Notes: generated from the sequence alone by a model not told the origin. DNA of 64,000 nt from Candidatus Dojkabacteria bacterium (GCA_035370405.1 DAOOVT010000001.1:485-64484), one strand, 5' to 3'; shown: positions 13,006 to 63,477, counted from the first letter of the stretch. Made by a program: numbers and translations.

Positions 13006-13017
13006 TTATTTTATAGA

Positions 13018-23154: not shown

Positions 23155-23217
23155 GAAATTTTGCCTCCCCCTTAGTAATTAGTAATTTAGTAATATTGTT
23201 AATACCACTACAAAAAT

Positions 23218-23246
23218 TTGACATCATACTCACCAATAGTATATAT
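23218..23246 (+). promoter_or_regulatory. Near-consensus sigma70-type promoter upstream of the 23285 gene.
   Basis: TTGACA, a 16-17 nt spacer, then TATATA/ATATAT, about 40 nt upstream of the ATG. A TTAGTAA x3 tandem mini-repeat precedes it. Confidence 0.5.
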
Positions 23247-23284
23247 TTTTAATATTAAATAAAATGTCTGCCTAAAATACGCAT

Positions 23285-24421: not shown

Positions 24422-24440
24422 ACTAATATGAGGCAAATAC

Positions 24441-25421: not shown

Positions 25422-26336
25422 TTGGAAATGTCCAAGAGAAAACTGCCATTGGCAATGCTAGTCCTTGCCTTCATCTTTGTATCAATCACAAAGGAGTCTT
25501 TTGCATCTATGCAACTCTCTCCATTCACAAATGAGGTAATCGTAACAAATCAGCAATCAATCAATGGACAATTAACACTCCATAATGATGAAAACAAAGA
25601 CATCACAATAACTCCAGTAGTCTTTCTCTACGACCCTCAAAATCAAAGAATGATTGATACCATAACTAACATCTTCGTACAAACAAAACAAAAAACATAT
25701 ACCGTTCCCTCTGGAGAAACAACACAAATAGACTACACAATAACGCCATCTAAAGACCTCCCTGATGGTACATACTTTAATTTAATCGTGCTAAAAACCA
25801 CTTTAGACGACAACTCATCATCTACTGAATCAAAAGTTGGCTTAACTGCAAATATGTCGCACCTTGTGGTAATGCATAAAATTACAGATGAACAAAAATC
25901 AGTACAGTACAATACACAAGTAGAAATCCCAAACCATGGAATTCCATTCCTAAAACCAATAAAGGTAACCTACACAATTCAAAACACCTCAGGATATGTA
26001 CTAAAACCTTCTGGTGAAATACAAATATTCAACAACAAATCACACCAGCAACCAATCTACCTTAAAATAAATGAACAAGAAGAAAAAGTATATCCAGGAG
26101 GAAAACTACAACAAGAGTTCACAGTAAGTCAATGGTCTATACAAGACATCTTTTTCCCAAGACAGATAAATGCATACTTCTACAATGGCATAGATCAAAA
26201 CTATAATCTTGTATCAATACAAGAAAAAGTAAACCCAGTAATACAAATCATTTTAATACTAATTCCAGTATTCATAATCTCCTTTATCATCATTCTCATC
26301 AAAGACCTGCAAAAAGGAAAGAAACAAAAAAGTTAA
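25422..26336 (+). CDS. Cell-surface protein with a signal peptide and a C-terminal TM anchor.
   Basis: Signal peptide MEMSKRKLPLAMLVLAFIFVSITKESFA. C-terminal TM VIQIILILIPVFIISFIIILI, then KDLQKGKKQKS. Same architecture as the upstream neighbour, and the two genes abut (25421/25422). Confidence 0.4.
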   Translation: MEMSKRKLPLAMLVLAFIFVSITKESFASMQLSPFTNEVIVTNQQSINGQLTLHNDENKDITITPVVFLYDPQNQRMIDTITNIFVQTKQKTYTVPSGETTQIDYTITPSKDLPDGTYFNLIVLKTTLDDNSSSTESKVGLTANMSHLVVMHKITDEQKSVQYNTQVEIPNHGIPFLKPIKVTYTIQNTSGYVLKPSGEIQIFNNKSHQQPIYLKINEQEEKVYPGGKLQQEFTVSQWSIQDIFFPRQINAYFYNGIDQNYNLVSIQEKVNPVIQIILILIPVFIISFIIILIKDLQKGKKQKS

Positions 26337-39523: not shown

Positions 39524-40660
39524 TTATTTTATAGCTTTCTCTATTTCTTCCAACGCTTTATCACCAATCCCCTTGATATTCTTTAATTCTTCCTTCTTCA
39601 TATTTTTCAACAAGCCAACACTCGAAACTCCTGCTTCCATCAAAGACTTTACTACACGCGGTGACAAATTAAGCTCTTCAACCGATTTCTCATCTTCCGC
39701 TGCCTTCACCTTCTCTGCAGCCTCTATTTCGGCATCTATATTCTTCTCTTTTTTCACTATTCTGACAACGGAAAACTCCTTATCAACCTTAACCTTACCT
39801 TCTCTCAAAGCCTTCATTCTCTCTCTGTCATCCTCCTCCATCTTCTGTCTCCTCTCCTTCTCTTCCAAATACTCTTTATGAAGTTTAGCTAATCTTGCTT
39901 CATGATCTCTTCTTAATGAAGTCACCGATTCGGCCTTCTTTGTCTTTCCACAAATACTTCCGAAAATATTTACAAATAGATTAATACTCTTAATGGAATC
40001 ATCATTAGCAGGTATAGGATAATCAATTAAATCAGGATTACAATTAGTATCTATCAACCCTATTATAGGAATATTCATATTTCTGGCTTCTTTTATAGCA
40101 TTCTCTTCAACTTTGCTATCTATAACAATCATTGCGGAAGGAAGTTCATCCATAAATTTAATTCCACTATATATTCTATTAAGTCTATCAACCTCTTTCT
40201 GCATAACAAGCATCTCCTTCTTAACTCGTCCTTCACCTCCTTTTGCCAAATCCTCCTCCATTTTCAAAAGATTTTCTACACTTCTCTTAATCGCATCAAA
40301 GTTGGTAAAAAGACCTCCCGGCCATCTTCTATTTATGTAAAACATACCATTTTGAAGTGCTATATTCTGAACTATTGTTGCAGCTTGACCTTTAGTTCCA
40401 ACAATAAGTATATTTCCTCTCTCACTAAATTTTGACAATGCATTCAATGCTTTCTCTAACTCCTCATTTGTCTTAACCAAATCAATTATATGAATCCCAT
40501 TTCTTTCTTCATATATATACTTTTCCATTCTTGGATCCCAAGCACTCTTCTTATGTCCGAAATGACATCCTGCCTTTAGTAAATCTATTAACTCTGGTAA
40601 TTGAAAACTCTTATTTTTAGTCTCAGTCTTCTCGGAGACTTCTTTTTTGGTTTCTACCAT
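39524..40660 (-). CDS. rpsB: 30S ribosomal protein S2 with an approximately 170 aa C-terminal extension ending in an HhH-like module.
   Basis: S2 core (LLKAGCHFGHKKSAWDPRM...GLIDTNCNPD). Start at 40660 is preceded by AGGAAAGGA. The C-terminus SPRVVKSLMEAGVSSVGLL...GIGDKALEEI is helix-hairpin-helix-like. Confidence 0.85.
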   Translation of the reverse strand: MVETKKEVSEKTETKNKSFQLPELIDLLKAGCHFGHKKSAWDPRMEKYIYEERNGIHIIDLVKTNEELEKALNALSKFSERGNILIVGTKGQAATIVQNIALQNGMFYINRRWPGGLFTNFDAIKRSVENLLKMEEDLAKGGEGRVKKEMLVMQKEVDRLNRIYSGIKFMDELPSAMIVIDSKVEENAIKEARNMNIPIIGLIDTNCNPDLIDYPIPANDDSIKSINLFVNIFGSICGKTKKAESVTSLRRDHEARLAKLHKEYLEEKERRQKMEEDDRERMKALREGKVKVDKEFSVVRIVKKEKNIDAEIEAAEKVKAAEDEKSVEELNLSPRVVKSLMEAGVSSVGLLKNMKKEELKNIKGIGDKALEEIEKAIK

Positions 40661-40794
40661 ATTTTTTTCCTTTCCTTTTAAAAAATATTTCTGAAGGGGA
40701 ATATACTTTCCATATATCACCCAGGATCGGTCAGAAATATATGAGATATTAAACAGCACGATTATACATATCAAAGGCCGTTAATGCAAATAAA

Positions 40795-44423: not shown

Positions 44424-46427
44424 TTAAATCAAACCATTTGATATCATCCAATCAATCATCGCTCTAGCAATAGCTACTGCATTGTAACTCTGCCCACCAT
44501 CTTCCAAAAATATGGTAAGAACATATTTGGGGTTTTCATATGGGAAAAATGTTGTAACCCAAGCATGTGTATGCTCATACTCTCCATCTTTGTTCAATTT
44601 CCCGAACTCTGCTGTCCCAGTTTTTGCAGCAACTTTAATCCTCATTCCTGCAACACCAGTTATAGTTGCCCTTCCTCCATTAACAGCATTAAACATTCCC
44701 TCTCTTACAACTTGCAAAGCATCAGCACTCACGATATTCTCATCTATATCCTCAAATGACACAAACTCCTCCTCTTTATTTTCATTAACAAAATATTTTG
44801 CCAAATGAGGCCTATGCAATGTTCCACCATTTGCAATAGCTGAAGTCCAATTTGCCATCTGCAATGGTGTTACCAATGTAATACCTTGTCCTATTACAGA
44901 ATTACAAGAGTCTCCTTCTGGATACCATACAGGTTCTAACCAAGGACTCGTTGTATTTGCCAACGCAATTTTATTTGCTGGGGACGGAAGTCTTCCAGGA
45001 GCTTCTCCTGGAAGATCTATACCTGTATATTTCCCTATCCCAAACCTTTCAAGGTACGGAACAAGAGCATTCATATCCCAATGACGAATCAACTCACAAA
45101 AATAAATATTTGAAGAAACAGATAGAGCATCAATCATATTTAAAGCTCCATACGCATGATTCCCATATTCCTGAAATGGTGCCCCACTTGAAAATGTATA
45201 CCCTGCACTACTAACATACACAGTATTTTTTGTTACAACTCCTGCATCCAAAGCTCCTGCTGCAACTATGGTCTTAAACGTAGAACCAGGAGGAACTTGT
45301 GCTGCTATTGCCCTATTAAGAAGAGGATTCTTGGGATCGTTTAACAATGCATCATATTCGCTTTTTGAAATACCTCCTACAAATGGATTGTTATCATATC
45401 CTGGAAACGAAACTAAAGACAAAATTTCTCCATTTGTAACATCTTCGAGTATTCCAGCTCCTCCAATTGCTTTGTAATCACTAATCCCCTCCTCTAAAAG
45501 AGAGTACAACTCTTTCTGTGCATTAATATCTATTGTTAAATACAAATTCTCTCCTGCTACAGGTTCTCTGAGAGTATATGGCTCATCTGACACTGTCTTC
45601 CCTACAGCATTCACCTCCCACGCAACTTGTCCATGTTCACCCAAAAGTTTTTCATCATACTCCCTCTCTATCCCAGTTATACCTATTGTATCAGTTATAT
45701 CTACATAATCCTTCTTCTCAAGATCTTCTGCTGTAACATCTCCCGTGTATCCCAAAACATGAGAGATTACATTCCCCGCAGGATAGTATCTTTTACTCCC
45801 ATCATCTATATACACACCTACTAGTTTATCTAAATTTGCCTTCACTTTTATCGCAGTATCATTATCTATATCTGTAGCTATTAGTATCTCTTGGAAATAT
45901 GGACTTTCTTTATGCACAGAAAGTATCTTTTCCATTATGGAAGAATACTCTGATTTTCCATCACCCTTGTTCTTCTTCCAATTATCTCCAAGTATTTCGG
46001 AAAGGGAATCAACCGTCTTCTGTAATTTTTCAGCCTCTATATATCCATCAGAATCTAAATAGTTTTCAATTAGAATATATACATTCATAGATGACACATT
46101 TTGTGCCAAAGCTATACCATTCCTATCTAAGATTGCACCTCTCAAAGCAGGTTCCGTTTTAATTTTCACCTTATTGGTCAGTGATTTATCAAGCATCTCT
46201 TCTCCTAATGCTACTTGTAGTGTAACTAAATCCTTTATTAAGATACCGAAGATACCTATGAATAGTAGGAACAAGGCAATGTAATTCCATGCTGGATTGA
46301 TATTATCCTCATGATTTTTTTTAACCGAATTGCGTAAATTTACTGCAAAGTATTTCCTACTTATGCGTATTCGAAATTTTTCTTTTTTCTTTTTCGGTTC
46401 AATTTTTTTAGAAATCTTTAAGTCCAT
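44424..46427 (-). CDS. mrdA: Penicillin-binding protein 2 (peptidoglycan D,D-transpeptidase).
   Basis: An N-terminal TM. STFKTI (SxxK), SVSSN (SxN), KTGTAE (KTG). Confidence 0.85.
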   Translation of the reverse strand: MDLKISKKIEPKKKKEKFRIRISRKYFAVNLRNSVKKNHEDNINPAWNYIALFLLFIGIFGILIKDLVTLQVALGEEMLDKSLTNKVKIKTEPALRGAILDRNGIALAQNVSSMNVYILIENYLDSDGYIEAEKLQKTVDSLSEILGDNWKKNKGDGKSEYSSIMEKILSVHKESPYFQEILIATDIDNDTAIKVKANLDKLVGVYIDDGSKRYYPAGNVISHVLGYTGDVTAEDLEKKDYVDITDTIGITGIEREYDEKLLGEHGQVAWEVNAVGKTVSDEPYTLREPVAGENLYLTIDINAQKELYSLLEEGISDYKAIGGAGILEDVTNGEILSLVSFPGYDNNPFVGGISKSEYDALLNDPKNPLLNRAIAAQVPPGSTFKTIVAAGALDAGVVTKNTVYVSSAGYTFSSGAPFQEYGNHAYGALNMIDALSVSSNIYFCELIRHWDMNALVPYLERFGIGKYTGIDLPGEAPGRLPSPANKIALANTTSPWLEPVWYPEGDSCNSVIGQGITLVTPLQMANWTSAIANGGTLHRPHLAKYFVNENKEEEFVSFEDIDENIVSADALQVVREGMFNAVNGGRATITGVAGMRIKVAAKTGTAEFGKLNKDGEYEHTHAWVTTFFPYENPKYVLTIFLEDGGQSYNAVAIARAMIDWMISNGLI

Positions 46428-46430
46428 AGT

Positions 46431-46934
46431 TTATGACAGTTTTATGTTTGATCTATTACCCTCTTTTCTAAATCTACTAGTAAATATTTCACATAGTATA
46501 ATTATTATCAAAGAAATAGCTGAGTACAAGACACAATTTTTTAATTCTGCTGAAGTTACGAGAGTAAACGCTCTATTCAAAAATAACGATGGAAGCATGG
46601 AAAAAAGAATGTAATATACCAGTAGGGTGAAGAATTTGACACCCCAAGAAAGTATTCCCACCTCTGTAGAAAAAAATATCGATACCAAAGAGAAGAATAT
46701 CAAGGCTAATAAGGCTGTTAAAAAATTAGTTCCTAACATGTAATGAGATGTAACATCAATAATGAGACATATTATGAACATCAAAGGAAAAAGAATTTTC
46801 CAATCAACTTTCCTATACAAAAACAAGAAGAAAACAAATGCGATATTTATACCAAGCAAATTAGAAAAAAAACTTTCCAAAAATATGAAGAGAAAAATCC
46901 CAACTATTGTGTATATTAGTTTTAATACAATCAT
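46431..46934 (-). CDS. mreD: Rod shape-determining protein MreD.
   Basis: A 167 aa polytopic membrane protein between mreC and mrdA. Confidence 0.6.
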   Translation of the reverse strand: MIVLKLIYTIVGIFLFIFLESFFSNLLGINIAFVFFLFLYRKVDWKILFPLMFIICLIIDVTSHYMLGTNFLTALLALIFFSLVSIFFSTEVGILSWGVKFFTLLVYYILFSMLPSLFLNRAFTLVTSAELKNCVLYSAISLIIIILCEIFTSRFRKEGNRSNIKLS

Positions 46935-46940
46935 ATTGTT

Positions 46941-47780
46941 CTATATTTCAACAAATACAGTAATTAAATTATCATAATTGATTAATGGATTTACATAACC
47001 AGTTTTTGATGTATTCGCTGGATTGTCAGATAGCCCTACTAGATATCCAAGTACTAGGTAATTTCCAATTTTTTCATCGTTAAGCACAACAACATCTCCC
47101 TCTTTAACATTTGCATCAGCAGACATATTTTCCACTTTGATACCATTGCCTGTCCCTATGACAACTGCTTTGCTTAGAATCGGTGGTTCAGAGGAAATGA
47201 CTGCATTCTCAACACCTGGTTGAGTGATTATTGCTTCAAAATTATTTCCTTTAGACAAGGGTAATTTTACTAGAGATCCAGTTTTATCCGATTTTATAAC
47301 TTGCCCAACATATACATTACCAATACTTACAACATTGTCCTGCTTCACTCCATCATCACTTCCAGCATTTATTTTTATATATTCGGAGTCATTTCTACCA
47401 AGCACTTTACAAGTAACATATTTTTTTGATATATCAGAAAGGTTTAATTGTTTTTTCAAAGAGTCATTCTCTTCCTTTAAGATTAAGTAGTAGGAATTGT
47501 TAATATCTTTTTCATACATATCAATTTTTAAGTTATTGTAATCTTCCATAAATTCACCCATCTTCACAAAATTTTGGAAATACCTCCTTACTCCCGTACC
47601 AATTTCCGCTCCATTATATGCCAAAGGCTCAAATACATATGATATTCCATTTCTAAGAGAGGTTACTAATCCAATACTATCTAGTAGTACAAAAATTATT
47701 CCTGCAAGTATACTCACAGATATATATACATATGTATTGTCAAAAACAGATTGAGTCTTTCTCATTTTCAAACAAAACAC
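46941..47780 (-). CDS. mreC: Rod shape-determining protein MreC.
   Basis: An N-terminal TM, a coiled-coil (LKKQLNLSD), and a beta-rich C-terminus. Position after mreB. Confidence 0.7.
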   Translation of the reverse strand: MFCLKMRKTQSVFDNTYVYISVSILAGIIFVLLDSIGLVTSLRNGISYVFEPLAYNGAEIGTGVRRYFQNFVKMGEFMEDYNNLKIDMYEKDINNSYYLILKEENDSLKKQLNLSDISKKYVTCKVLGRNDSEYIKINAGSDDGVKQDNVVSIGNVYVGQVIKSDKTGSLVKLPLSKGNNFEAIITQPGVENAVISSEPPILSKAVVIGTGNGIKVENMSADANVKEGDVVVLNDEKIGNYLVLGYLVGLSDNPANTSKTGYVNPLINYDNLITVFVEI

Positions 47781-47786
47781 ATTTAA

Positions 47787-48842
47787 TTAAACCAGCTCAT
47801 CCCATGATTTTTGTATTCTTTGGAGTAGATCTATGTGATCGAGCATTAGTGCTGTACCTTTAGCTGTTACAGACATAGGTTCATCAACTATTTTAACTGG
47901 CATATTAAGTTCTTCACTAAGGTATACATCCATTCCTCTTATCAATGCGCCCCCACCAGTAAGATATACACCTGAAGTAAGTAAATCCTTCAGAAGTTCT
48001 GGCGGAGTATCTTCTATGGCATCTTTTACAGATTCTGTTATTATTCCAATGGTATTCATGATTGCTTCTCTTATCTCTATGCTGTTAATTTCAACAGTTT
48101 TGGGTAATCCGGTAAGCAAATCACGTCCTTGCACACCCTGTTTCTTTTCCTTTTTTAGAGGAATAGCTGAACCCATGAGTATTTTAATATCTTCTGAACT
48201 TCTCTCACCTATCAGAACATTGTATTTATTCCTTATGTAATTAACGATATCCTCATCCATTTCATCTCCAGCCACTTTCATTGTTTTGTCAACAACAATA
48301 TCTCCGAGTGAAAATACTGCTATATCCGTAGTCCCTCCCCCTATATCAACAATCATGCTCCCTGAAGCATCTTCAACAGGAAGACCAGCCCCTACTGCAG
48401 CAGCCATAGATTCTTCAACTATGAAAACTTCCCTAGCTCCAGCAGTTTTTACTGCATCTATAACTGCTTGTCTTTCAACTTCGGTAACAGATGATGTTAC
48501 TCCAACAATAACTCTTGGCCTTGGTATCTTAAACCCCTTACTAAAGTATGTGTGAGCTTTCTTTATGAAGTGAGAAATCATTGCCTGTGTTGTATCAAAA
48601 TCTGAGATAACTCCATCTCTAAGAGGTCTTACTGCAACTATATTAGCTGGAGTTCTCCCTATCATCTGACGAGCTTCCTTCCCTACAGCAAGTACCATTT
48701 TTGTCCGCTTATCAACAGCTACAACTGAGGGTTCAGAGACAACAACACCATGATTTCTCATGTACACCATAGTATTGGCAGTACCTAAATCTATTCCAAA
48801 ATCATATGTAACTAATTCCCATAGGGAATCAAGCATACCCAT
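47787..48842 (-). CDS. mreB: Rod shape-determining protein MreB (actin-like ATPase).
   Basis: FGIDLGTANTMVY (phosphate 1), IVDIGGGTTDIAV (phosphate 2). Confidence 0.9.
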   Translation of the reverse strand: MGMLDSLWELVTYDFGIDLGTANTMVYMRNHGVVVSEPSVVAVDKRTKMVLAVGKEARQMIGRTPANIVAVRPLRDGVISDFDTTQAMISHFIKKAHTYFSKGFKIPRPRVIVGVTSSVTEVERQAVIDAVKTAGAREVFIVEESMAAAVGAGLPVEDASGSMIVDIGGGTTDIAVFSLGDIVVDKTMKVAGDEMDEDIVNYIRNKYNVLIGERSSEDIKILMGSAIPLKKEKKQGVQGRDLLTGLPKTVEINSIEIREAIMNTIGIITESVKDAIEDTPPELLKDLLTSGVYLTGGGALIRGMDVYLSEELNMPVKIVDEPMSVTAKGTALMLDHIDLLQRIQKSWDELV

Positions 48843-54261: not shown

Positions 54262-54287
54262 GCTACACTACTCTACTTTAAAGAATG

Positions 54288-54320
54288 AAGGGACTGTTTT
54301 TGGACAGTCCTTTTCTTTAT
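54288..54320 (+). terminator. Rho-independent terminator after rplL.
   Basis: AAGGGACTGT-TTTTGG-ACAGTCCTTT stem-loop (10 bp including one G-U pair), followed by TTTTCTTTATT. Confidence 0.7.
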
Positions 54321-54412: not shown

Positions 54413-55081
54413 ATGACATATTCCCCATTTACTTCATGGATTCTAGATAATGGTGTCTCTCAACAGACATTAGAACTTCTAGTATCTATAACTGTTGTTG
54501 CAACAATCGTAAGCATATTCAGATACATTTTTGGAGGAAAATCATATGGTATATATTCCCCAATTATTTTAGCAATAGCATACTCATATACTGGTCTTAA
54601 ATATGGACTAGCCATAACTGCCGTTGTCATAATAACAACCCTTGTCTCCTACTCGGTACTGAAAAAGATAAGAATGCATTACATTACAAGAATTGCAATA
54701 AATTACTGCCTTCTAGTAATTGCAATTCTCATGCTCATAATAGCTACCTACAAATATGATTTGGGCTTAAAAAATACATCTATGATATCCCCTCTAGCAC
54801 TTGTATCCATTGCAACTCTTTCTGATTTCTTTGTAAAACAATTTACCCAAAAATCCTTAAAAACTTCATTCTCTCCTCTCATAGGAACAATCGTAATAGC
54901 ATCAATCGGTTGGTACATAATAACTTCTGAGCAAATATCACAGTACATGATTAACAACCTCTGGATAATACCTCTACTCATATTCATAAATATACTCATA
55001 GGACAATTCAAAGAACTTAGAATTAAGGAAATCCTCAGATTTAATTCCATAGTTGGGAACAAGGACAATGCTCAAAAGTAA
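54413..55081 (+). CDS. Seven-transmembrane membrane protein, the membrane partner of an alpha-L-glutamate-ligase-like system.
   Basis: Seven predicted TM helices in 222 aa. The 3' end overlaps the start of the downstream ATP-grasp gene by 29 nt. No transglutaminase-like domain is present. Confidence 0.55.
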   Translation: MTYSPFTSWILDNGVSQQTLELLVSITVVATIVSIFRYIFGGKSYGIYSPIILAIAYSYTGLKYGLAITAVVIITTLVSYSVLKKIRMHYITRIAINYCLLVIAILMLIIATYKYDLGLKNTSMISPLALVSIATLSDFFVKQFTQKSLKTSFSPLIGTIVIASIGWYIITSEQISQYMINNLWIIPLLIFINILIGQFKELRIKEILRFNSIVGNKDNAQK

Positions 55082-56525
55082 AGGTTACAAAGAAATATTA
55101 GGTATCAACAGAAGGAATCAGGAATACATCCGTCCGTATAACTCTGCTAGAGCTAAAAATATTGCAGACAACAAAATTCTTACAAAAAAAATACTAACTG
55201 AAAATGGAATCTTAACACCTAAAATTTACAAAGTTGTAAAAGACAGAAAACAATTAGAATTTTTGAATTGGGATTCACTTCCTAAAAGTTTTGTAATTAA
55301 ACCTAACAAAGGCACAGGAGGCAATGGCATCATTATATTCTACGGGAAGAAAAAAGGACAAACAGCTTGGATAAGACCAAACGGAACTGTAATGTCTAAA
55401 TATGACATCTCCTTACATATTGCAAATATTCTTGATGGAAGATACTCCATGGGAAATAAAAAAGATACAGCAATCATAGAAGAAAGAGTCAAAACAGACC
55501 CTTTTCTTAAGCAATATTCATACAAAGGAGTTCCTGATATAAGGGTAATATGCTTCAAAGGAGTACCCATAATGGCCATGATACGAATTCCAACTAAAAG
55601 ATCAAATGGAACTGCAAATCTACATTCTGGAGCAATATGCACTGGTATAGATATAGCTACAGGAATTACCACATATTCTATGCAAATGGATACAAAAAGT
55701 ATATTTAGTGATGTATATGAAGATATAGAATATACTACAGACCTAGAAGATAATAAAAAGCTCAGTGGTATAACTATTCCTGATTGGAACAAAATACTCG
55801 AAATAGCTCTAAAGTGCCAAAAGGTTACAAAACTTGGATACATTGGAGTAGACATATCAATAGATGCAGAAAAAGGTCCTGTTGTTTTTGAATTAAACGC
55901 TAGACCAGGATTAGGAATACAAGTCGCCAATAAAGCAGGATTAAGATCTAGACTAGAACTAATAAAAGAGGTTGATGTAAAAAGTATCAGACACGGTATA
56001 AAGATTGCAAAAGATCTTTTTGGTGGAGAAATTGAGGAGAGTATAGAATCAATAAGTGGAAGAAAAGTAGTTAATATTATTGAAAAGGTAACATTATTTG
56101 ATAGACAAGCACTTTCTGTCAAAAAGAAAAATAAGAATAATAAACAACCCTCTAAGGTTTTTATGGATACAAGTATTCTCACATCTAGAATTACAGAAGC
56201 AACAGCAAATAGAATTGGTTTCCTTTCAACCACAAAATATTTTAATTCCTTAAACGTTCCTGAAAAATTCAATACACTTAAAGATGCTCAGAAGTATATT
56301 GATGAAAATATTCAAGCACTGACATTAGAAGAAGGAATAAAGAGGATTGCCAAAATTGCAGATGGCAATGATGTGAAGATACGCCCTGTAATAGAAATAT
56401 CTATGGAAATAGCTGAACAGGTTAGATCTCTCGATGTTATAATCGTCCCAGATTTAGAGTATCCTATATCTATGGGAAGAAATGAATTGAAAGGATATTT
56501 AATTGATACCACACATACTTTTTAA
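55053..56525 (+). CDS. Alpha-L-glutamate-ligase-like (RimK-related, TIGR02291-like) ATP-grasp enzyme fused to a C-terminal retropepsin-like (RimB/DUF785-like) domain.
   Basis: The N-terminal half has ILGINRRNQEYIRPYN...FVIKPNKGTGGNGIIIF...YKGVPDIRVICFKGVPIMAMIRIPTKRSNGTANLHSGAICTGID...ELNARPGLGIQVANKAGLRSRLELIKE. This matches my memory of Pseudomonas/Vibrio alpha-L-glutamate ligase-like proteins. The C-terminal approximately 170 aa has VFMDTSILTSRITEA and IRPVIEISMEIAEQVRSLDVIIVPDLEYPISMGRNELKGYLID, matching the retropepsin-like putative zinc protease family. Confidence 0.65.
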   Translation: MGTRTMLKSKGYKEILGINRRNQEYIRPYNSARAKNIADNKILTKKILTENGILTPKIYKVVKDRKQLEFLNWDSLPKSFVIKPNKGTGGNGIIIFYGKKKGQTAWIRPNGTVMSKYDISLHIANILDGRYSMGNKKDTAIIEERVKTDPFLKQYSYKGVPDIRVICFKGVPIMAMIRIPTKRSNGTANLHSGAICTGIDIATGITTYSMQMDTKSIFSDVYEDIEYTTDLEDNKKLSGITIPDWNKILEIALKCQKVTKLGYIGVDISIDAEKGPVVFELNARPGLGIQVANKAGLRSRLELIKEVDVKSIRHGIKIAKDLFGGEIEESIESISGRKVVNIIEKVTLFDRQALSVKKKNKNNKQPSKVFMDTSILTSRITEATANRIGFLSTTKYFNSLNVPEKFNTLKDAQKYIDENIQALTLEEGIKRIAKIADGNDVKIRPVIEISMEIAEQVRSLDVIIVPDLEYPISMGRNELKGYLIDTTHTF

Positions 56526-56527
56526 AT

Positions 56528-57520
56528 ATGAAGAAATATGAGGAATATTTGAAAGAGTGTGGAAATGTACATTTAGCATATTACATTTGGGCTGCTAATA
56601 AACTTGGAATTCACTATGAAGTTTTAGTAAAAGGACTCCTTGCACAATTTAGTGATGGAAATGCAATATGGCATATAATAAATACAGCTACTCCATTAAC
56701 AACAACTACGTCAACAACAATATGTAAGAGGAAGAATTTAACTCATATGGTTCTCGAGAGGAATTGTATCGCTGTCCCAAGACAAAAGACCCTACTCTCT
56801 TCCTCCGATGCTGTGAATTTTTTTAATGAATATAAAGATATAGTTATTAAGCCAACACAACAACTTGGAGGAAAGGGAGTATCTATCCTCCCACAGAGCG
56901 AACAAGAAGCATCTGAGGCTTTCGAAAGAGCATCATTAGCCTCTCATTCAAAAACATCTTCCAAAGTTATTGCAGAGCAATTTGTGCATGGACAAAATTA
57001 CAGATTTCTAGTTCTAGGGGATAGTGTTATAGCAGTAGCAAGAAGAAAATCAGCCCATGTTATAGGTGATGGAAAAAGTAATATCAAACAGCTCATAGAA
57101 CAAACAAACATAATTCGTAAAAATTCTTTGTTAAAGCCTATCATCATAGATGATGAGGTTAATCTAAAGCTAAAAAGAGATTTCCTATCATTGGACACTG
57201 TACCAAAAGCTGGACAAGAAATAATATTAAGATATAACTGCAATTTGACTACAGGAGGAACTACAGAAGAATGCATGAGTGAAGTTGACAATTACTATAA
57301 GGAAGTTGCTATAAACGCAGTTAAAATAGTAGGTGCAGAATTTGGAGGAGTAGACATTATTGCAAAAGACATATCCTCCATCGGAGAATTTGCTGTAAAT
57401 GAAATCAACTACAACCCTGGATTAAGACTCCATTACAAAGTTGATAAAGGTAATATTACTGATGTTGCTGTCCCAATAATGCAGTACATTAGAGATAAAT
57501 ATATAAACTTACCAAAATAG
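56528..57520 (+). CDS. Cyanophycin-synthetase-like ATP-grasp ligase (CphA G-domain homolog; no Mur-ligase domain).
   Basis: IVIKPTQQLGGKGVSI...NYRFLVLGDSVIAVARRKSAHVIGDGKSNIKQLIEQTN...YNCNLTTGGTTEE...GVDIIAKDIS...AVNEINYNPGLRLH. This parallels the CphA ATP-grasp motifs (VVVKP..GNHGRG; YRLLVVG..VAAARR.PA.V.GDG..T...LIE..N; NLSTGG; VEVNAGPGLRMH). Confidence 0.6.
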   Translation: MKKYEEYLKECGNVHLAYYIWAANKLGIHYEVLVKGLLAQFSDGNAIWHIINTATPLTTTTSTTICKRKNLTHMVLERNCIAVPRQKTLLSSSDAVNFFNEYKDIVIKPTQQLGGKGVSILPQSEQEASEAFERASLASHSKTSSKVIAEQFVHGQNYRFLVLGDSVIAVARRKSAHVIGDGKSNIKQLIEQTNIIRKNSLLKPIIIDDEVNLKLKRDFLSLDTVPKAGQEIILRYNCNLTTGGTTEECMSEVDNYYKEVAINAVKIVGAEFGGVDIIAKDISSIGEFAVNEINYNPGLRLHYKVDKGNITDVAVPIMQYIRDKYINLPK

Positions 57521-57527
57521 TACAAAA

Positions 57528-59234
57528 ATGCAAAAAAACACACAAGTACTGCAAGGGTTAAACCTCCTTTCGACAACTTCTCTAGTCACAATAAAAATTC
57601 AAAACAAAGAAAATGTAGAAAAACTACTAAAACAAATAACCTCCTACCACCCAATATTCATAGATAAATACCACTTTGAACAAAATAATCTCTTAATAGA
57701 AACCGCTATCCCATTCGTATGGAGAGAAGCATCAACATATATTCAAAAGCTATCGCAGGGAGAGCTATCATACAAAGATTGTAAGAAGAAAATAGTAGAA
57801 GACATAATAACCCGAAGACTAGCATCTATGTCTACTATTCCTGTTCTCCATTCAGCACACAAACAACAAAAAGAGATAACTCCAACAATAATCTCCGATT
57901 ACAACTCCTCGAAGAATAAGGCTACAGAATCTAAAGGATTTAATAGATATTACACATTAGGCTGTGGTAAGGAATCCCAAGTAATATATTCAATATCCTC
58001 TAGCAAAGATTCAAAAACTGCAAAACAAATACAAAGAGACAAATGGAGCACCAATATGCTAATGGAAAGACTTGGTCTTCCAATACCGAAATGGCAACTA
58101 GTAGGAAGCAAGGCTGATATAGACAAAATCTGGGATAGTTACACAAAACCAGTAGTCATAAAACCTACAGGCCTTGCAGGAGGTAATGGAGTAGTTCTAG
58201 GAATCAAAACAAAAGAACAATGCAAAAAAGCATTTGACTTTGCTCAAAAGGCAACAAATACATTTCCAAGAAGTGCATGGCAGAAAAAAATTATGATACA
58301 AGAACAAGTTCAAGGAGAAGATTACAGACTACTAATAGTCGATGGCAAATTTGAAGTAGGTACAAAAAGAATTCCAGCATTCGTAACTGGTGATGGAAAA
58401 AACAGCATAAAGAAATTAATAGAAGAAGCAAATAAAGATCCAAAAAGAGACCTATCTAACCCATCTCACACACTAAAACCAATAATCATTGACGATCCTC
58501 TACTAGATTATCTAAAACAACAAAAGCTATCTCTCGAAGAAATCCCTCAAAAGGGACAAAAAATACAACTTAGAAAAGTTGCAAGCATGAGTCAAGGAGG
58601 TATCACTGAAGATGTCACAGACCTTGTTGGAGCAGAAATTAGATACATCGCAGAAAGCATAGCTCAATCAATACATGCATTCACTCTGGGTGTAGATGTA
58701 CTTTGCAAAGACATCACTAAACCACTCACAAAGGAAAATGGAGCAATACTCGAGGTAAACACTATGCCAGAAGTATATCTCAACATATTCCCAGTAATAG
58801 GAGAAGAAAAAACAAATGTAATAGACACATATGTAGACAAACTTCTTTCTGGAAATAACACTAAAAGAATTGTAGTTGTAGGGAATCCATCAATAGATAT
58901 CTCTACAATGTTAAAAAGAAAAACATTCATCTGCTCATACTTAAAACAAGATGACGTCGTCGGAGAATATAGAGACAAAGAATTAAGAATAAATGGCCTT
59001 ACAATAAACAAAGAGCTAAAAAAAGAAAAAGCTCTTGAGGCACTAAAAATAAATGCTGCATTAGATGCAATAATACTACATCATAGAAATTGGGAAGAAG
59101 TAGAAGAAACAGGTTTAGGTTTTGAAAAAATAGACCTATTAATAATTACAAAAGATATGAGAAAAGACAAAAGATTTAATCAAATTTTGAGATACAGACT
59201 AAGAGGACTAATTACAAAGATTAAAATTATTTAA
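57528..59234 (+). CDS. Cyanophycin-synthetase-like ATP-grasp ligase with a unique approximately 160 aa N-terminal domain (CphA N+G-domain-like; no Mur-ligase domain).
   Basis: VVIKPTGLAGGNGVVLGI...DYRLLIVDGKFEVGTKRIPAFVTGDGKNSIKKLIEEANKDPKR...ASMSQGGITEDVTDLVGAEIRYIAESIA...GVDVLCKDITKPLTKENGAILEVNTMPEV. This is a strong resemblance to the CphA G-domain, including the DPRRG-like NKDPKRD loop. Confidence 0.65.
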   Translation: MQKNTQVLQGLNLLSTTSLVTIKIQNKENVEKLLKQITSYHPIFIDKYHFEQNNLLIETAIPFVWREASTYIQKLSQGELSYKDCKKKIVEDIITRRLASMSTIPVLHSAHKQQKEITPTIISDYNSSKNKATESKGFNRYYTLGCGKESQVIYSISSSKDSKTAKQIQRDKWSTNMLMERLGLPIPKWQLVGSKADIDKIWDSYTKPVVIKPTGLAGGNGVVLGIKTKEQCKKAFDFAQKATNTFPRSAWQKKIMIQEQVQGEDYRLLIVDGKFEVGTKRIPAFVTGDGKNSIKKLIEEANKDPKRDLSNPSHTLKPIIIDDPLLDYLKQQKLSLEEIPQKGQKIQLRKVASMSQGGITEDVTDLVGAEIRYIAESIAQSIHAFTLGVDVLCKDITKPLTKENGAILEVNTMPEVYLNIFPVIGEEKTNVIDTYVDKLLSGNNTKRIVVVGNPSIDISTMLKRKTFICSYLKQDDVVGEYRDKELRINGLTINKELKKEKALEALKINAALDAIILHHRNWEEVEETGLGFEKIDLLIITKDMRKDKRFNQILRYRLRGLITKIKII

Positions 59235-59269
59235 ACAAACATAATTAATTTATTAGGAAATATAAATCT

Positions 59270-60238
59270 ATGCGATTCTTAATTATTGAAAAAAGACAAA
59301 GGATCAATAATAACAGATTCAAAACAGATATACCAACAGGCTCTGAGAGACTAATAGAGGAACTGAAAAAAAGAAATATAGAATATGATTTCATATACAA
59401 TGATCAGCTAGAATTCATCTTTAAACCATATACTATGAATATCCTTGCAAATGGGAAAGATATTCTGGAATACTCCCATATACTATTCAGAGGACACGCC
59501 CTTCACAATGACAAAGAATACCATTTCAAACGATATATCATAGATTATGTTGACAATTACAATAAAAAAAATACAAATAACAAAATTCTTGTACAAAATG
59601 CAGATGCAATAAAAAAACTCCCATACTATAACAAGATAGCAATGGCACAACTATGCTATGAAAATAATCTCCCCTACTTCACCACATATTATAGACCAGA
59701 TGGAAATTACTCCAATTCACAAAGAAGCATTCTAAATGAATATCCTTTAGTTATAAAGGAATACACAGGAGAGAATAGAATAGAATTAATTGATGGAGTT
59801 GAAAAAATCAAAAAGAATGTCTTCAAGCTTAACAATTTAGATGATTATTCACAACAAGGACTTAAAGATCAAAACCTAGCTAATTTCTTCATTCAAGAAT
59901 TTTCCAATGCAGGAGAAGACTACAGGATATTTGTAAAACTTGGAAAAGTTGTCGCTGGATGGAAAAGAAAAAGCACCAAGAATTTTATAACTGTAAATCA
60001 AGGAGAATATGAAATATACAATGAACCCAATGAAGAAATAAAGACTATTGCAGAAAGAATGAGCAATGTCTTAAACGCTGATTTTGTAGCAGTCGACTTT
60101 ATGTATATAGGAGACAAACCATATATACAAGAGCTTTCCCTACACCCTGGATACAAAGCTTACGAAACAAAAGCAAAGGGAACTCCCATAAATATTGCAG
60201 AACAAATAATATCGGCTTTTAAAGTCCCACCTTTCTAA
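59270..60238 (+). CDS. RimK/LysX/GshB-type ATP-grasp ligase.
   Basis: GEDYRIFVKLGKVVAGWKRKS...VNQGEYEIYN...DFVAVDFMYIGDKPYIQELSLHPGYKAY, the ATP-grasp C-terminal core with an RimK-like DxRxxV...NxxxG layout. Confidence 0.55.
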   Translation: MRFLIIEKRQRINNNRFKTDIPTGSERLIEELKKRNIEYDFIYNDQLEFIFKPYTMNILANGKDILEYSHILFRGHALHNDKEYHFKRYIIDYVDNYNKKNTNNKILVQNADAIKKLPYYNKIAMAQLCYENNLPYFTTYYRPDGNYSNSQRSILNEYPLVIKEYTGENRIELIDGVEKIKKNVFKLNNLDDYSQQGLKDQNLANFFIQEFSNAGEDYRIFVKLGKVVAGWKRKSTKNFITVNQGEYEIYNEPNEEIKTIAERMSNVLNADFVAVDFMYIGDKPYIQELSLHPGYKAYETKAKGTPINIAEQIISAFKVPPF

Positions 60239-61379
60239 ACATACTAAGCCACTGATCTTTTGTAGGAACATTAGATGCTCTTGGAATTAAACCATCTTCT
60301 ACCCATTCACACTGTTTAATAGAAATTTTCCCAGAATAAAGACTATTGTACAATGATGGATTCTTTGCAATACTAGAAGATACTTTTCTAAAACCTCTAA
60401 AATACACTATATCTTTTACATATATTCCAGCTTTTGATGTATCAGAAAGCCCTCTTTTCACCCTATACGCAACATTAAACGCTGACTGCTTCGGAAATAT
60501 TCCATGTAAACAGTTATACAATTCTCTAAACGAAAGATTCCCTCCTACATATATCGCATATGTTAAAGCAACCTTCCTTTTTAAACTACTTTCAGTCAAA
60601 ACATTTACATTACTTTCATTCCACGTAGCAAGTCCCTCTTCTGCATCTAAATAGGCTGGTAAATTTGAGTTACCTAGAGCAGGAAACCCAGTATTTAGAC
60701 CATTAACAGTTCTCAAAACATGTGTTCCGACCTCATGAATTAATGTTTTCTTTAACATAAGAGCATCTCTCTTTATTCCTTCATCAACAAAAATCTCTTT
60801 GCTCTTTATCCCTACTCTAACAGAATTCTTTCGAATATTTGATGATTTTTCTACTTTCCAACCATTCAAATTCAACATCGTAAATATATTTTGAAAAATT
60901 CCCAATATCTCATCATACTCATACAATCTTCTATCCTTTGATTTATCTACCTTTACAAGATTGTAACTTTTGGTATTACCTCTAAGTACTCTACATGAAT
61001 TTCTAAATAGCTTCCCGCTTGGAAATCCGAATCTTTCAATGGAGATATCTGTAATAGCTTCATTATTCCCAACTGAGTTAATAAGATCATTAGCTTGTTT
61101 CTTAGATGATATTAATGATATGTAAAAATCAGAAATTCTTGGATCTACATCTATTATTTCCTCTACAGACAGAAGTTTTCTGAAAATTTCATCATTCCTG
61201 TTTCGAACGGTTTTGTATTTAAAAACAGGATTATATGTATCAGATTCAAAAAATTTCTCTTCCTCCTCTTCCAAATTAATAGGAGTAAGTACAAATGAAG
61301 TAGGAATTCTCAATTGACCAAGAAGTACAGATACTTCATCTAGTTTCATTTGTTTTATACTTTTATTCAATATTTTCAT
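60219..61379 (-). CDS. DUF1704/QEGLA-motif gluzincin metallopeptidase (MATCAP-like carboxypeptidase family).
   Basis: HEVGTH (HExxH), then about 27 residues later AEEGLATW (the QEGLA-type third zinc ligand). 386 aa. Convergent with, and overlapping by 20 nt, the 3' end of the ATP-grasp operon. Confidence 0.6.
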   Translation of the reverse strand: MKILNKSIKQMKLDEVSVLLGQLRIPTSFVLTPINLEEEEEKFFESDTYNPVFKYKTVRNRNDEIFRKLLSVEEIIDVDPRISDFYISLISSKKQANDLINSVGNNEAITDISIERFGFPSGKLFRNSCRVLRGNTKSYNLVKVDKSKDRRLYEYDEILGIFQNIFTMLNLNGWKVEKSSNIRKNSVRVGIKSKEIFVDEGIKRDALMLKKTLIHEVGTHVLRTVNGLNTGFPALGNSNLPAYLDAEEGLATWNESNVNVLTESSLKRKVALTYAIYVGGNLSFRELYNCLHGIFPKQSAFNVAYRVKRGLSDTSKAGIYVKDIVYFRGFRKVSSSIAKNPSLYNSLYSGKISIKQCEWVEDGLIPRASNVPTKDQWLSMFRKVGL

Positions 61380-61395
61380 ATACTATAACTAAACA

Positions 61396-62415
61396 TTATT
61401 TCCTAAAATCACGATTAAAAGTAAATGTTCTTTCTCCTCTGGCTATTAATTCTAAAGCTATCCCTGTTCCCTTTACAACGCAATATATAGGCTCATCAGC
61501 TACATGTGAAGGAACACCTGTTGCTCTGGAAAATAACTTATCTAAATTTCTCAACTCTGATGTTCCGCCACTCATAACCATTCCCCTATCTATTATATCG
61601 GCTGAAAGTTCTGGAGGAGTTTTTTCCAATACATTTCTAATACTTCTAATAATTGATTTAAGTGGAAAATCTATTGCTTTTGCAACATCATTTGAATCAA
61701 CAATTATCGATTTTGGCATACCGGCCCCAACATCTCTTCCTCTCACCTCCATCTGTGCAGGATCTCTAACTTCAACAGCAGACCCTATTTTTATTTTAAT
61801 ATTCTCAGCTGTCTGCTCACCGATCATAATCCCTTTCTTCTTCCTCATATATGAAATTATTGCTTCGTTCAAAGAATCCCCTGCAACACGCAATGACTCA
61901 TACTCAACTATTCCATCAAGTGACATAACTGCAATTTCTGTAGTTCCTCCACCCATATTCACAATCATATTTCCAGAAGATGTATGTATCGGAAGTTGAG
62001 CTCCTAATGCAGCAAGAAGTGGTTCGGGTAGTAATGTTATACTTTTCGCTCCAACAGAGTTTGCCGCTTTTAATACAGCTCTCTCCTCAACAGAAGTAAT
62101 TCCTGCAGGTACACTTATAACCACATCAGGCTTAAAAAATCTAGACTTTCCTAGTGCTTTATCAAAAAAATATCTCAACAAAGCCTCTGTAACCCTAGAA
62201 TCTGCTATTACTCCACTTCTTAGTGGCCTTTTAGCAATAATATTCTCAGGGGTCTTTCCAATCATTTCTTTTGCCTCCTTTCCAACTGCTATTACTGTGT
62301 ATGTATTTACATCAATAGCTACAACAGTAGGTTCAGAGAGCACAATCCCCTCTCCCTGTACAAAAACCACAGAGTTCGCAGTTCCTAAATCTAACCCTAA
62401 CTTCTTTCCAAGCAT
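61396..62415 (-). CDS. Second MreB-like actin-family ATPase paralog.
   Basis: LGLDLGTANSVVFV and IVNMGGGTTEIAV (actin-fold phosphate motifs). 339 aa. Its stop lies 16 nt upstream of the DUF1704 peptidase start. Confidence 0.8.
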   Translation of the reverse strand: MLGKKLGLDLGTANSVVFVQGEGIVLSEPTVVAIDVNTYTVIAVGKEAKEMIGKTPENIIAKRPLRSGVIADSRVTEALLRYFFDKALGKSRFFKPDVVISVPAGITSVEERAVLKAANSVGAKSITLLPEPLLAALGAQLPIHTSSGNMIVNMGGGTTEIAVMSLDGIVEYESLRVAGDSLNEAIISYMRKKKGIMIGEQTAENIKIKIGSAVEVRDPAQMEVRGRDVGAGMPKSIIVDSNDVAKAIDFPLKSIIRSIRNVLEKTPPELSADIIDRGMVMSGGTSELRNLDKLFSRATGVPSHVADEPIYCVVKGTGIALELIARGERTFTFNRDFRK

Positions 62416-62445: not shown

Positions 62446-63477
62446 CTATTCAAAATTCAAAAGCATTGCTTCCTTCATTGCATCAGCAGTCTCTCTAGCA
62501 ATCTTGGAAACTTTAAGACTACTTTCTAAAGCACTATCCAGCAATTCTTGCTTTTTCTTCTCAGCTTCAATTCTTCTCTCCCTTATGGGACTTAATTTTT
62601 GATTCATTACTTCAAACAATCTTTGCTTAACCTCTATGTCTTTAATATTTCCCTCTCTATACCTCCTTTTCATCTCTTCCACTTCATCTTTATCATCATT
62701 AAAAAAGTCATGATACATGAATGCTACATTACCTTCTACTCTACCTGGATCACTTGCATGCACTCTATTTGGGTCCGTGTACACCTTAAAAACCTTTTCC
62801 TTAAGTTCCTCTTCACTATCAGACAAATAGATGCAATTACCAAGACTTTTTCCCATCTTTTCTGCACCATCAATTCCGGGAACATTCACAGATGTCCCTA
62901 GCAATGCTTCTGGGAGATTCAAAACATCTTTCCCATAGGCTGAATTAAACTTCCTAGCTATCTCCCTTGCATCCTCTATCATTGGAAGTTGGTCTTTTCC
63001 AACAGGAACTAAATCAGCATTTACACTTAATATATCAGCAGCTTGATGAACAGGATACAGAAAGAAACCAAGTGGAGTTGAATCAGAAAACCCCTTTTGT
63101 AAAAGTTCTGTTTTAATCGTTGGATTATGTTTAACCTTCTGTACCGTGGTAAAATTTGACAAATATATGAATATCTCATCTATTTGCGGTACTTCACTCT
63201 GAATAAAGACAGAAGTCTTCTCAAAATCTATACCACACGCATAATAATCACACAAAAGTTCATATACGCTCTCCCTTATCTTTTCTGGATTATTTGCATT
63301 GTCTGTAAAAGCTTGAATATTAGCAATTTCTACAAATGTCTCATACTCATCTTGCAACTTAACTCTGTTCTGTATAGAACCAATAAAATGACCAATGTGC
63401 AATTTACCAGTTGGTCTATCTCCTGTCAATATTCTTTTCCTCTTCTGAATTTCTTTCATAGCTAAGTATTTTAACAA
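62446..63477 (-). CDS. trpS: Tryptophan--tRNA ligase.
   Basis: TGDRPTGKLHIGHFIGS (HIGH) and KMGKSLGN (KMSKS). 343 aa. Confidence 0.9.
   Translation of the reverse strand: MLKYLAMKEIQKRKRILTGDRPTGKLHIGHFIGSIQNRVKLQDEYETFVEIANIQAFTDNANNPEKIRESVYELLCDYYACGIDFEKTSVFIQSEVPQIDEIFIYLSNFTTVQKVKHNPTIKTELLQKGFSDSTPLGFFLYPVHQAADILSVNADLVPVGKDQLPMIEDAREIARKFNSAYGKDVLNLPEALLGTSVNVPGIDGAEKMGKSLGNCIYLSDSEEELKEKVFKVYTDPNRVHASDPGRVEGNVAFMYHDFFNDDKDEVEEMKRRYREGNIKDIEVKQRLFEVMNQKLSPIRERRIEAEKKKQELLDSALESSLKVSKIARETADAMKEAMLLNFE

Follow-up and report, generated by a model that had tools for sequence, protein, structure and literature searches.

A conserved cluster of four ATP-grasp ligases, one with a CphA2-type layout, in Candidatus Dojkabacteria

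The closest described systems to the genes treated here are the cyanophycin synthetases, the Rlo proteins of Pseudomonas aeruginosa and the MATCAP-type metallocarboxypeptidases. CphA2 polymerises β-Asp-Arg with its G domain, and its N and M domains have no catalytic role (PMC10273328); in TeCphA1 the substrate Asp is held by R323, N394, S396, G456 and R458 (PMC9427784). In the TMCP/MATCAP family, HExxxH and EEG(LA) are the defined metal-binding motifs (PMC10499314). RloB and RloC of P. aeruginosa are the sole studied relative of the pairing of a seven-transmembrane (7TM) protein with an ATPgrasp_ST ligase; loss of either rescues the hypo-osmotic lethality of mutants without the retropepsin-like Rlo proteases and partly rescues their cell-shape and antibiotic phenotypes, and the ligase and membrane protein of P. 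aeruginosa therefore make something that needs processing by the protease. The present analysis concerns two adjacent genes at positions 56,528 to 59,234 in a 64,000-nt stretch of Candidatus Dojkabacteria DNA (GCA_035370405.1, DAOOVT010000001.1:485-64484), referred to below as the window, which the original prediction, made from the sequence alone, had described as standalone cyanophycin-synthetase-like ATP-grasp genes without the arginine-adding Mur-ligase (M) domain. Both encode intact ATP-grasp ligases of the CphA-G/GshF clade, the larger with the N-G-truncated-M layout that the literature gives for CphA2, and both belong to a six-gene cluster that is conserved in about 80 species-level genomes.

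The two open reading frames (ORFs) were recovered exactly at the predicted positions, encode proteins of 330 and 568 amino acids (aa) and are separated by 7 nt (Table 1). The window is AT-rich (~34% GC), and the nearest relatives of both proteins are all from Candidatus Dojkabacteria (WS6, a phylum of the Candidate Phyla Radiation (CPR)/Patescibacteria), where they carry the database labels "hypothetical", "cyanophycin synthetase" or "D-Ala-D-Ala ligase-like". Against NCBIfam, the best model for both was NF010623, in each case over the ATP-grasp (G) part only, with 219 bits for the 330-aa protein (E 8e-65, model positions 167-470) and 245 bits for the 568-aa protein (E 1e-72, model positions 185-573), in agreement with the predicted CphA-G type; the runners-up for both were the ATP-grasp modules of bifunctional GshAB and of N-acetylglutaminylglutamine synthetase (Ngg). 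These scores lie far under the full-length cut-offs of the cyanophycin synthetase models TIGR02068 and NF010623 (850 and 877 bits), so that by the curated standard neither protein counts as a cyanophycin synthetase. In a PDB sequence search with both proteins, the leading matches were CphA1, CphA2 and GshF only, and D-Ala-D-Ala ligase, RimK, PurD and other ATP-grasp enzymes had E-values more than 10 orders of magnitude worse. The predicted resemblance is real and lies well outside chance. The sequence and fold matches are accompanied by the large loop of Gomega and by the residues for ATP, Mg and carboxylate that mark the CphA-G/GshF/Ngg clade. Most of the predicted CphA motif series is also present, the pair carrying VIGDGKSNIKQLIE and VTGDGKNSIKKLIE, NLTTGG and SMSQGG, and EINYNPG and EVNTMPE; DP(K/R)R, which had been attributed to both proteins, is restricted to the 568-aa protein (as DPKR).

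For the 568-aa protein, the best structural and profile matches are to CphA2. The best PDB-sequence match was 7TA5 (CphA2 of Gloeothece citriformis), in which residues 174-555 aligned with 204-576 of the 629-residue chain and the alignment ran through the truncated M domain, and a profile of 27 family members matched StCphA2 8FXH best (E 5e-53, up to chain residue 579) and extended into the M domain of SuCphA1; the alignment with the CphA1 chain 7LGM reached residue 571. The aligned lengths were ~490-610 residues for CphA1 chains, 333-385 for GshF and ~235 for ordinary ATP-grasp enzymes, and the additional length with CphA1 corresponds to the N domain and M vestige of the larger protein. The M domain is vestigial, as in CphA2, because the Mur-ligase P-loop GTNGKT of CphA1, which is degenerate in CphA2 too, is replaced by GNPSIDIS. 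The predicted lack of an M domain strictly applies to the 330-aa protein only, as residues ~446-568 of the 568-aa protein align to the start of the CphA2/CphA1 M domain; the lack of a catalytic, Arg-adding M domain holds for both, the larger protein having just this P-loop-less and catalytically dead remnant. The CphA-like N domain that had been proposed for the 568-aa protein is borne out by structure, and no sequence similarity to CphA N domains was detectable. The Cx19HxxEH peptidase motif of primer-independent CphA1 is absent from this N domain, as it is from CphA2, and neither the isolated N domain nor the vestigial M domain gave a significant match to Pfam. The CphA2 architecture also speaks against the bare poly-Asp-like backbone suggested at the outset, the precedent set by CphA2 being the polymerisation of pre-made units.

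The 330-aa protein comprises one complete G domain (Gcore, Glid and Gomega) with neither an N nor an M domain. In a phmmer search against PDB its first match was TeCphA1 7WAC (E 2.7e-32). Its AlphaFold2 model (pLDDT 84) retrieved the GshF ATP-grasp module first in Foldseek (E 7e-24), with the CphA1/CphA2 G domains mostly at 3e-23 to 1e-21, within some one to two orders of magnitude of it; the TM-scores were higher with the CphA G domains, reaching 0.79 (TMq) against substrate-bound TeCphA1. Thus, the predicted preference for CphA over any other clade is upheld by the profile searches, and membership of the clade is firm, but the Foldseek scores of the model do not settle the division between CphA-like and GshF-like.

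Functional positions taken from structural and mutagenesis data on TeCphA1 (PMC9427784) and StCphA2 (PMC10273328) were mapped onto both families, and residue conservation was counted over 27 and 30 orthologues (TeCphA1 numbering). The ATP, acyl-phosphate and core residues K220, K261, R309, R323, D363 and R390 are invariant in both families, save for R390 being Lys in one sequence each, and the Mg-binding D...ExN residues are among the invariant columns of both alignments. The P-loop His (H267) is replaced by Gly in both. The 330-aa family has Thr for E215 (CphA2 D212), the residue that binds the Arg side chains of cyanophycin, and the equivalent in the 568-aa family is variable (E in 12, T in 6, Q in 5 and K in 3 of the 27 sequences; Q in the window). 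Of the chain-binding trio of StCphA2, R308 is kept in the 568-aa family, the H208 equivalent is mostly Lys and D212 is not conserved. The Asp pocket of CphA1 is complete in the 330-aa protein, whose R173, N239, T241, G298 and R300 correspond to R323, N394, S396, G456 and R458. In the 568-aa family, the same pocket carries Ser353 for N394, Glu415 for G456 and Tyr417 for R458, all invariant; CphA2 has F or Y at the last position. At the proposed β-Asp-Arg site, D322, R349 and S355 are kept (StCphA2 D362, R389 and S395), and Ser353 takes the place of N393, the N393A variant of which is inactive in StCphA2 (PMC10273328). Pairwise identities among the two window proteins, CphA1 and CphA2 are 28-32%, against 37-42% between CphA1 and CphA2, which makes each window protein a deep branch rather than a recent offshoot of either enzyme. 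Judged from these aligned residues, both are probably active ligases; the 330-aa enzyme is predicted to take an Asp-like acidic amino acid and the 568-aa enzyme something bulkier, like CphA2, and neither appears to be tuned to an Arg-decorated chain.

The word "standalone" proved misleading, because the two ORFs come third and fourth in an operon of closely spaced genes. The cluster (54413-61379) comprises six genes, with four ATP-grasp ligases, two peptidase activities and one 7TM protein (Table 1).

Table 1. Positions in the window of the cluster genes, the domains of the 568-aa ligase and the adjoining features
Feature	Position	Strand	Basis or remark
Terminator-like hairpin	54287-54314	+	12-bp stem then T run; after rplL, upstream cluster boundary
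7TM membrane protein, RloB type, 222 aa	54413-55081	+	PF14402 7TM_transglut, 67 bits vs cut-off 25
ATPgrasp_ST / alpha-L-glutamate-ligase-like ligase, 490 aa, with RimB/RloA-type retropepsin-like domain	55053-56525	+	PF14397, TIGR02291
G-only ligase, 330 aa	56528-57520	+	CphA-G/GshF clade
N-G-truncated-M ligase, 568 aa	57528-59234	+	CphA2 architecture
N domain of 568-aa ligase	57528-57947 (aa 1-140)	+	CphA-like by structure
G domain of 568-aa ligase	57948-58862 (aa 141-445)	+	ATP-grasp
Vestigial M domain of 568-aa ligase	58863-59234 (aa 446-568)	+	Alignment to CphA1/CphA2
RimK-family-like ATP-grasp ligase, 322 aa	59270-60238	+	PF08443, 36.8 bits vs cut-off 21
MATCAP/DUF1704/QEGLA-type metallocarboxypeptidase, 386 aa	60219-61379	-	PF08014, 95 bits vs cut-off 27
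Second MreB paralogue	61396-62415	-	Directly upstream of MATCAP gene, apparently co-transcribed

Upstream, rplL ends at 54261, and the terminator-like hairpin stands between it and the 7TM gene, so that a placement of the cluster within the rplJL operon was rejected; a promoter scan gave signals no higher than the shuffled expectation. The 7TM protein matches NF052267 (RloB) over the C-terminal 7TM part only (positions 310-506) and is without the extracytoplasmic inactive-transglutaminase domain, and its gene overlaps the ATPgrasp_ST gene by 29 nt. A 636-aa Transglut_core protein is encoded away from the cluster (9597-11507, +), the cluster 7TM protein being without the transglutaminase-like domain of its proteobacterial homologues. 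The 490-aa ligase consists of an ATP-grasp part (aa 1-305; 240 bits with PF14397, cut-off 31; 298.7 bits with TIGR02291, slightly under its cut-off of 314.2) and a retropepsin-like extension of 185 residues (aa ~306-490). This extension matches PF05618 in orthologues and Parcubacteria homologues (25-42 bits, E 2e-5 to 8e-11), which carry AKIDTGA or FMDTG and a C-terminal (I/L)GRxxL; the window copy was not detected by Pfam and is 75% identical to an orthologue that was. The 322-aa ligase is RimK-like by sequence rather than a demonstrated member of the RimK family, as it reaches 50.7 bits with TIGR00768 (cut-off 143.4), matches the MptN model over its full length but below the cut-off, and has ExS instead of the canonical ATP-grasp ExN Mg motif, as do 67 of 71 aligned sequences. 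The gene for the MATCAP-like protein is convergent with it, with a 20-nt overlap; the protein scores 108 bits with TIGR02421, under the cut-off of that model, but aligns to human MATCAP (7Z5G) across HExxxH (HEVGTH) and EEGLA, both invariant in 63 orthologues, and belongs to this family.

The adjacency of the second mreB (mreB2) and the MATCAP-like gene is kept in essentially all loci that reach that far, and the membership of mreB2 in the system is uncertain. MreB2 is 71-99% identical across the scanned loci, always lying between the MATCAP-like gene and trpS, and a canonical mreB-mreC-(mreD)-PBP2 operon is found elsewhere in the window (44424-48842, -). None of the six cluster proteins matches a defence-system model in PADLOC. 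The cluster holds no CphA1 with an active M domain, the 64-kb window no cyanophycinase-like gene, and neither CphA1 nor cyanophycinase genes were found in the window or in the ±10-kb flanks of the relatives.

When one genome for each GTDB species was scanned, 95 stretches with relatives emerged, of which 80 loci were kept. They come from metagenome-assembled genomes labelled as Dojkabacteria or with placeholders (uncultured Candidatus Saccharibacteria, uncultured bacterium, Patescibacteria group, Microgenomates), with three plain "bacterium" entries, and none of the 80 is assigned to a non-CPR phylum. By tblastn with the window proteins, the order rplL, 7TM, ATPgrasp_ST ligase, 330-aa, 568-aa, RimK-like, MATCAP (-), mreB (-) is found wherever the contig reaches, order and orientation being kept in ~80 species-level genomes at identities of 42-91%. 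Both ORFs have constant length and 45-85% identity over ~80 species and more than 100 protein clusters. This conservation of length, sequence and catalytic residues makes both genes a stable feature of the phylum and excludes a degraded copy, the possibility that the original prediction had kept in view. In a HMMER search of 1.84 billion representatives, proteins of 515-590 aa with the N-G-short-tail layout occurred in about a dozen clusters only, and those with a named source (two of the four divergent clusters looked up, and members of the main family) were all from Dojkabacteria.

Elsewhere in the CPR, Parcubacteria-type genomes carry short G-only ligases within analogous clusters of a PKD-7TM protein, an ATPgrasp_ST ligase with a RimB-like domain, and three to five further CphA-G-like or RimK-like ligases. 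One such locus (L084) has PKD-PKD-7TM, ATPgrasp_ST with RimB-like, a RimK-like ligase and four further ATP-grasp genes, and another (L088) has PKD-7TM, an 800-aa ATPgrasp_ST-RimB-like-MATCAP fusion, two CphA-G-like ligases, a second MATCAP and another ligase. Fusions of ATPgrasp_ST(-RimB-like)-MATCAP type, ~790-800 aa in length, form at least 120 protein clusters in Patescibacteria and Peregrinibacteria, and the MATCAP-like peptidase is therefore functionally tied to the ATPgrasp_ST ligase. Within one cluster, the CphA-G-like paralogues have the catalytic residues in common and differ at specificity positions, as would be expected if each ligase adds a different unit. In another uncultured bacterium (L086, 960-3635 and neighbours), a gene like that of the 490-aa ligase precedes one for a CphA-like enzyme with the full N-G-M layout and intact GTNGKT (ORF of 895 aa, gene called at 891 aa), together with DUF3541, two G-only ligases and glycosyltransferases; such clusters can therefore hold a complete M domain, the Dojkabacteria version being the truncated form. 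The G domain of this N-G-M enzyme has an atypical NARPDIDMHHYP motif. CphA2-length relatives outside the CPR were found in a Campylobacterales metagenome-assembled genome and in Estrella lausannensis, in contexts unrelated to the cluster, and the truncated-M layout is thus unique neither to cyanobacteria nor to Dojkabacteria. Megaproteins of 750-2400 aa with two or three CphA-G-like modules (P0253-P0258, P0260-P0266, P0272 and P0281), which often end in an acylphosphatase-like domain or begin with adenylation domains, look like an uncharacterised enzyme class.

In both phyla, a gene for a class Ic aminoacyl-tRNA synthetase is oriented convergently to the ligase cluster, with TrpRS two genes past the cluster in Dojkabacteria (window 62446-63477, -) and TyrRS directly after the last ligase in Parcubacteria-type clusters (L084 12162-13346; L088 10818-12005). 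This adjacency may be a coincidence or may reflect an aromatic amino-acid link, MATCAP being a Tyr/Phe carboxypeptidase family.

Because of the Rlo result, the acyl-phosphate chemistry of CphA-G, the polymerase-type N domain, the paralogue-specific pockets and the two trimming activities, we propose, with about an even chance of being right, that the cluster encodes a membrane-associated, ribosome-independent ATP-grasp system for building and trimming a peptide or poly-amino-acid chain. In this system, each ligase would phosphorylate a terminal carboxylate with ATP and then couple the amine of the next unit. The 330-aa enzyme, with its complete CphA1 Asp pocket, could add an Asp-like acidic residue, and the 568-aa enzyme may hold the polymer via its N domain and elongate it with a bulkier, probably pre-assembled unit. 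The retropepsin-like domain and the MATCAP-like carboxypeptidase could then trim or recycle the product, which is probably not canonical Asp-Arg cyanophycin. The assignments of clade, architecture and cluster are much firmer than this mechanism, in which the substrates, the order of action, the part played by the 7TM protein and whether a polymer or a defined peptide is made are all put forward conditionally.

Several observations weigh against this proposal. The 568-aa protein is without the P-loop His of CphA1/CphA2 and has an invariant Glu at the oxyanion position Gly456, so its chemistry may differ from that of CphA; its identity to CphA1 and CphA2 is just ~30%, no closer than that between the 330-aa and 568-aa proteins. 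The roles suggested for individual ligases come from a handful of aligned residues, and no acceptor was found. DTG is present in 61 of 66 aligned retropepsin-like domains, but three, including that of the window (56163-56174, aa 371-374), have DTS, and in the window lineage and its nearest relative (L004) the domain may accordingly be inactive. The MATCAP gene is transcribed from the other strand and shares an operon with mreB2 and trpS, and its link to the ligases is drawn from conserved adjacency and from the fusions in other phyla. Finally, protein C-termini are the best-known targets of the RimK, RimB and MATCAP families, and this would favour protein tailing.

The original prediction had already raised the idea of a protein acceptor. 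In such a tailing scheme, modelled on RimK acting on ribosomal protein S6 and TTL/TTLL on tubulin, the four ligases would extend the C-terminus of one or more proteins with amino acids (Glu and Asp, perhaps also an aromatic one), and the RimB-like and MATCAP-like peptidases would remove them. We regard this as possible, though clearly less probable than the free chain. The RimK-like, RimB-like and MATCAP-like parts all come from families with a tail-writing or tail-erasing role, the ligase-MATCAP fusions resemble a writer-eraser pair, and in every genome examined the cluster is flanked by rplL and by a paralogue of the cytoskeletal gene mreB. However, no candidate acceptor was found. The terminator-like hairpin parts rplL from the cluster, and the MreB2 tail, which was considered as an acceptor, received no support, its extreme C-terminus not being conserved (RR, N or T). 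Furthermore, the 568-aa enzyme bears two hallmarks of a free-polymer synthetase, the N domain of CphA type and the truncated M domain, cytosolic tailing needs no 7TM partner, and the Parcubacteria clusters with five or six distinct ligases resemble an assembly line more than a tail writer.

It is unlikely, in our estimate, that the product is a small defined peptide, such as an osmolyte, a cofactor tail or an envelope precursor, to which each ligase adds one residue without forming a polymer. The leading Foldseek match of the 330-aa protein to GshF, the second and third places of the GshAB and Ngg models for both proteins, the differing specificity positions of same-cluster paralogues and the link of the Rlo system to osmotic stress tolerance would all fit such a peptide. 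Against these stand the N and truncated M domains of the 568-aa enzyme, which are features of a polymerase and not of a dipeptide ligase, the two peptidase activities and the RimK-like poly-Glu-type ligase, which suggest chains of variable length, and the absence here of the fused partner domains of GshF and Ngg (GshA and GNAT, respectively).

True cyanophycin metabolism, in which the 568-aa protein would be a CphA2 orthologue that re-polymerises β-Asp-Arg and the 330-aa protein would supply or prime poly-Asp, is more improbable still. The remark in the original prediction that cyanophycin-like polymers are undescribed in reduced genomes needs qualifying, cyanophycin having been predicted once before from a CPR genome, that of Gracilibacteria (PMC6851277), and the best matches to CphA2, the aromatic residue at the R458 position, the conserved D362, R389 and S395 of the proposed dipeptide site and the "cyanophycin synthetase" annotations all point in this direction. 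Nevertheless, the acidic residue that binds the Arg of the polymer (E215 or D212) is variable in one family and Thr in the other, the N393 that StCphA2 requires is replaced by an invariant Ser, there is no P-loop His and G456 is Glu. The NCBIfam score is also far short (245 vs 877), and CphA2 is described as cyanobacterial and as reliant on polymer made by CphA1, no active-M form of which lies in the cluster, just as no cyanophycinase-like gene lies within the window. Lastly, that the two genes arose from a full-length cyanophycin synthetase by truncation or decay, as the vestigial M domain and the full N-G-M enzyme in the related cluster of another organism might suggest, can be dismissed given their constant length, 45-85% identity and invariant catalytic residues in ~80 species and over 100 protein clusters, the truncated form being the conserved state phylum-wide.

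Other features of the window are recorded for completeness. Ribosomal protein S2 (416 aa, 39524-40774, -) carries a C-terminal match to the RNA polymerase alpha-CTD (PF03118, E 7e-13), an unusual fusion. An AMP/thymidine phosphorylase-like gene lies beside a ribose-1,5-bisphosphate isomerase-like (IF-2B family) gene (11497-13986, -); AMP phosphorylase and ribose-1,5-bisphosphate isomerase form a nucleotide-salvage pair typical of CPR bacteria. Four consecutive ORFs of 304-404 aa (21940-26336, +) have no Pfam match, and the GC skew there departs from the strongly negative values of the surroundings. An 828-aa protein (1298-3784, -) has TrwB/VirD4-type coupling-protein and HerA-like ATPase domains.

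All parts of the cluster belong to known families, several of which were reportedly defined in Pfam by Iyer et al. in 2009, and the cluster is therefore not categorically new. A literature search found no prior description of the cluster or of these Dojkabacteria proteins. What is new is the combination of a CphA2-type polymerase with an altered pocket and a conserved module of four ligases, two peptidases and a 7TM protein in a 0.7-Mb genome, for which there is no characterised counterpart. Dojkabacteria genomes measure ~0.7 Mb, yet the six adjacent genes, four of them for ATP-consuming ligases, are in the same place in every genome examined; such retention speaks for an important cell function that has so far escaped notice, probably one at the envelope. 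The architecture of CphA2, hitherto described as cyanobacterial, is extended to a CPR phylum with a clearly different substrate pocket and would therefore be a candidate source of new cyanophycin-like biopolymers. RloB/RloC, RimB-like retropepsins and DUF1704/MATCAP are joined in one conserved module, which gives each a testable context. More tentatively, and with less confidence than the chain-building proposal itself, Dojkabacteria, Parcubacteria, Peregrinibacteria and other CPR bacteria could share an ATP-grasp-only assembly line that makes a new non-ribosomal poly-amino acid or peptide at the membrane, with a CphA2-like polymerase acting on a new monomer and a ligase/MATCAP writer-eraser pair as the bacterial counterpart of the tubulin-tail cycle.

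Compared with the cyanophycin enzymes, the 568-aa protein is like CphA2 (7TA5; 8FXH/8FXI of Stanieria sp.) in having N, G and P-loop-less truncated M domains, the ATP- and carboxylate-binding residues, an aromatic residue for CphA1 R458 and no Cx19HxxEH. It differs in its G-domain identity of ~30%, the loss of the P-loop His and of a conserved D212, the family-wide replacement of N393 by Ser and G455 by Glu, and its length of 568 aa against ~630-640 aa; moreover, its gene lies in a Dojkabacteria operon with 7TM, multiple ATP-grasp and peptidase genes, whereas CphA2 is found in cyanobacteria beside cyanophycin genes. The 330-aa protein shares with the CphA1 G domain (7WAC/7WAE, 7LG5) the Asp-binding residues (S396 as Thr) and the acyl-phosphate Arg309, and differs in having no N or M domain, in H267 to Gly and E215 to Thr, and in an identity of 28-32%; the GshF ATP-grasp module matches it about as well as CphA1.

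As for the remaining genes, RloABC of P. aeruginosa likewise places a 7TM_transglut protein beside an ATPgrasp_ST/TIGR02291-type ligase and a PF05618 retropepsin-like protease, and a RimK-family ligase, as in the RimK-RimB pair, is also found in the cluster. In contrast to RloABC, the cluster 7TM protein has no inactive transglutaminase domain, the protease is fused to a cytoplasmic ligase whereas RloA is secreted, and three ligases and a MATCAP-like peptidase are added. The likeness to the eukaryotic tubulin-tail cycle of MATCAP/TMCP and TTL/TTLL is an analogy of logic rather than a demonstrated orthology of pathways: an ATP-grasp amino-acid ligase is paired with a HExxxH...EEG metallocarboxypeptidase in both, the bacterial ligases are of the ATPgrasp_ST, RimK and CphA-G families and not of the TTL family, and in other CPR bacteria the ligase and MATCAP are fused in one protein.

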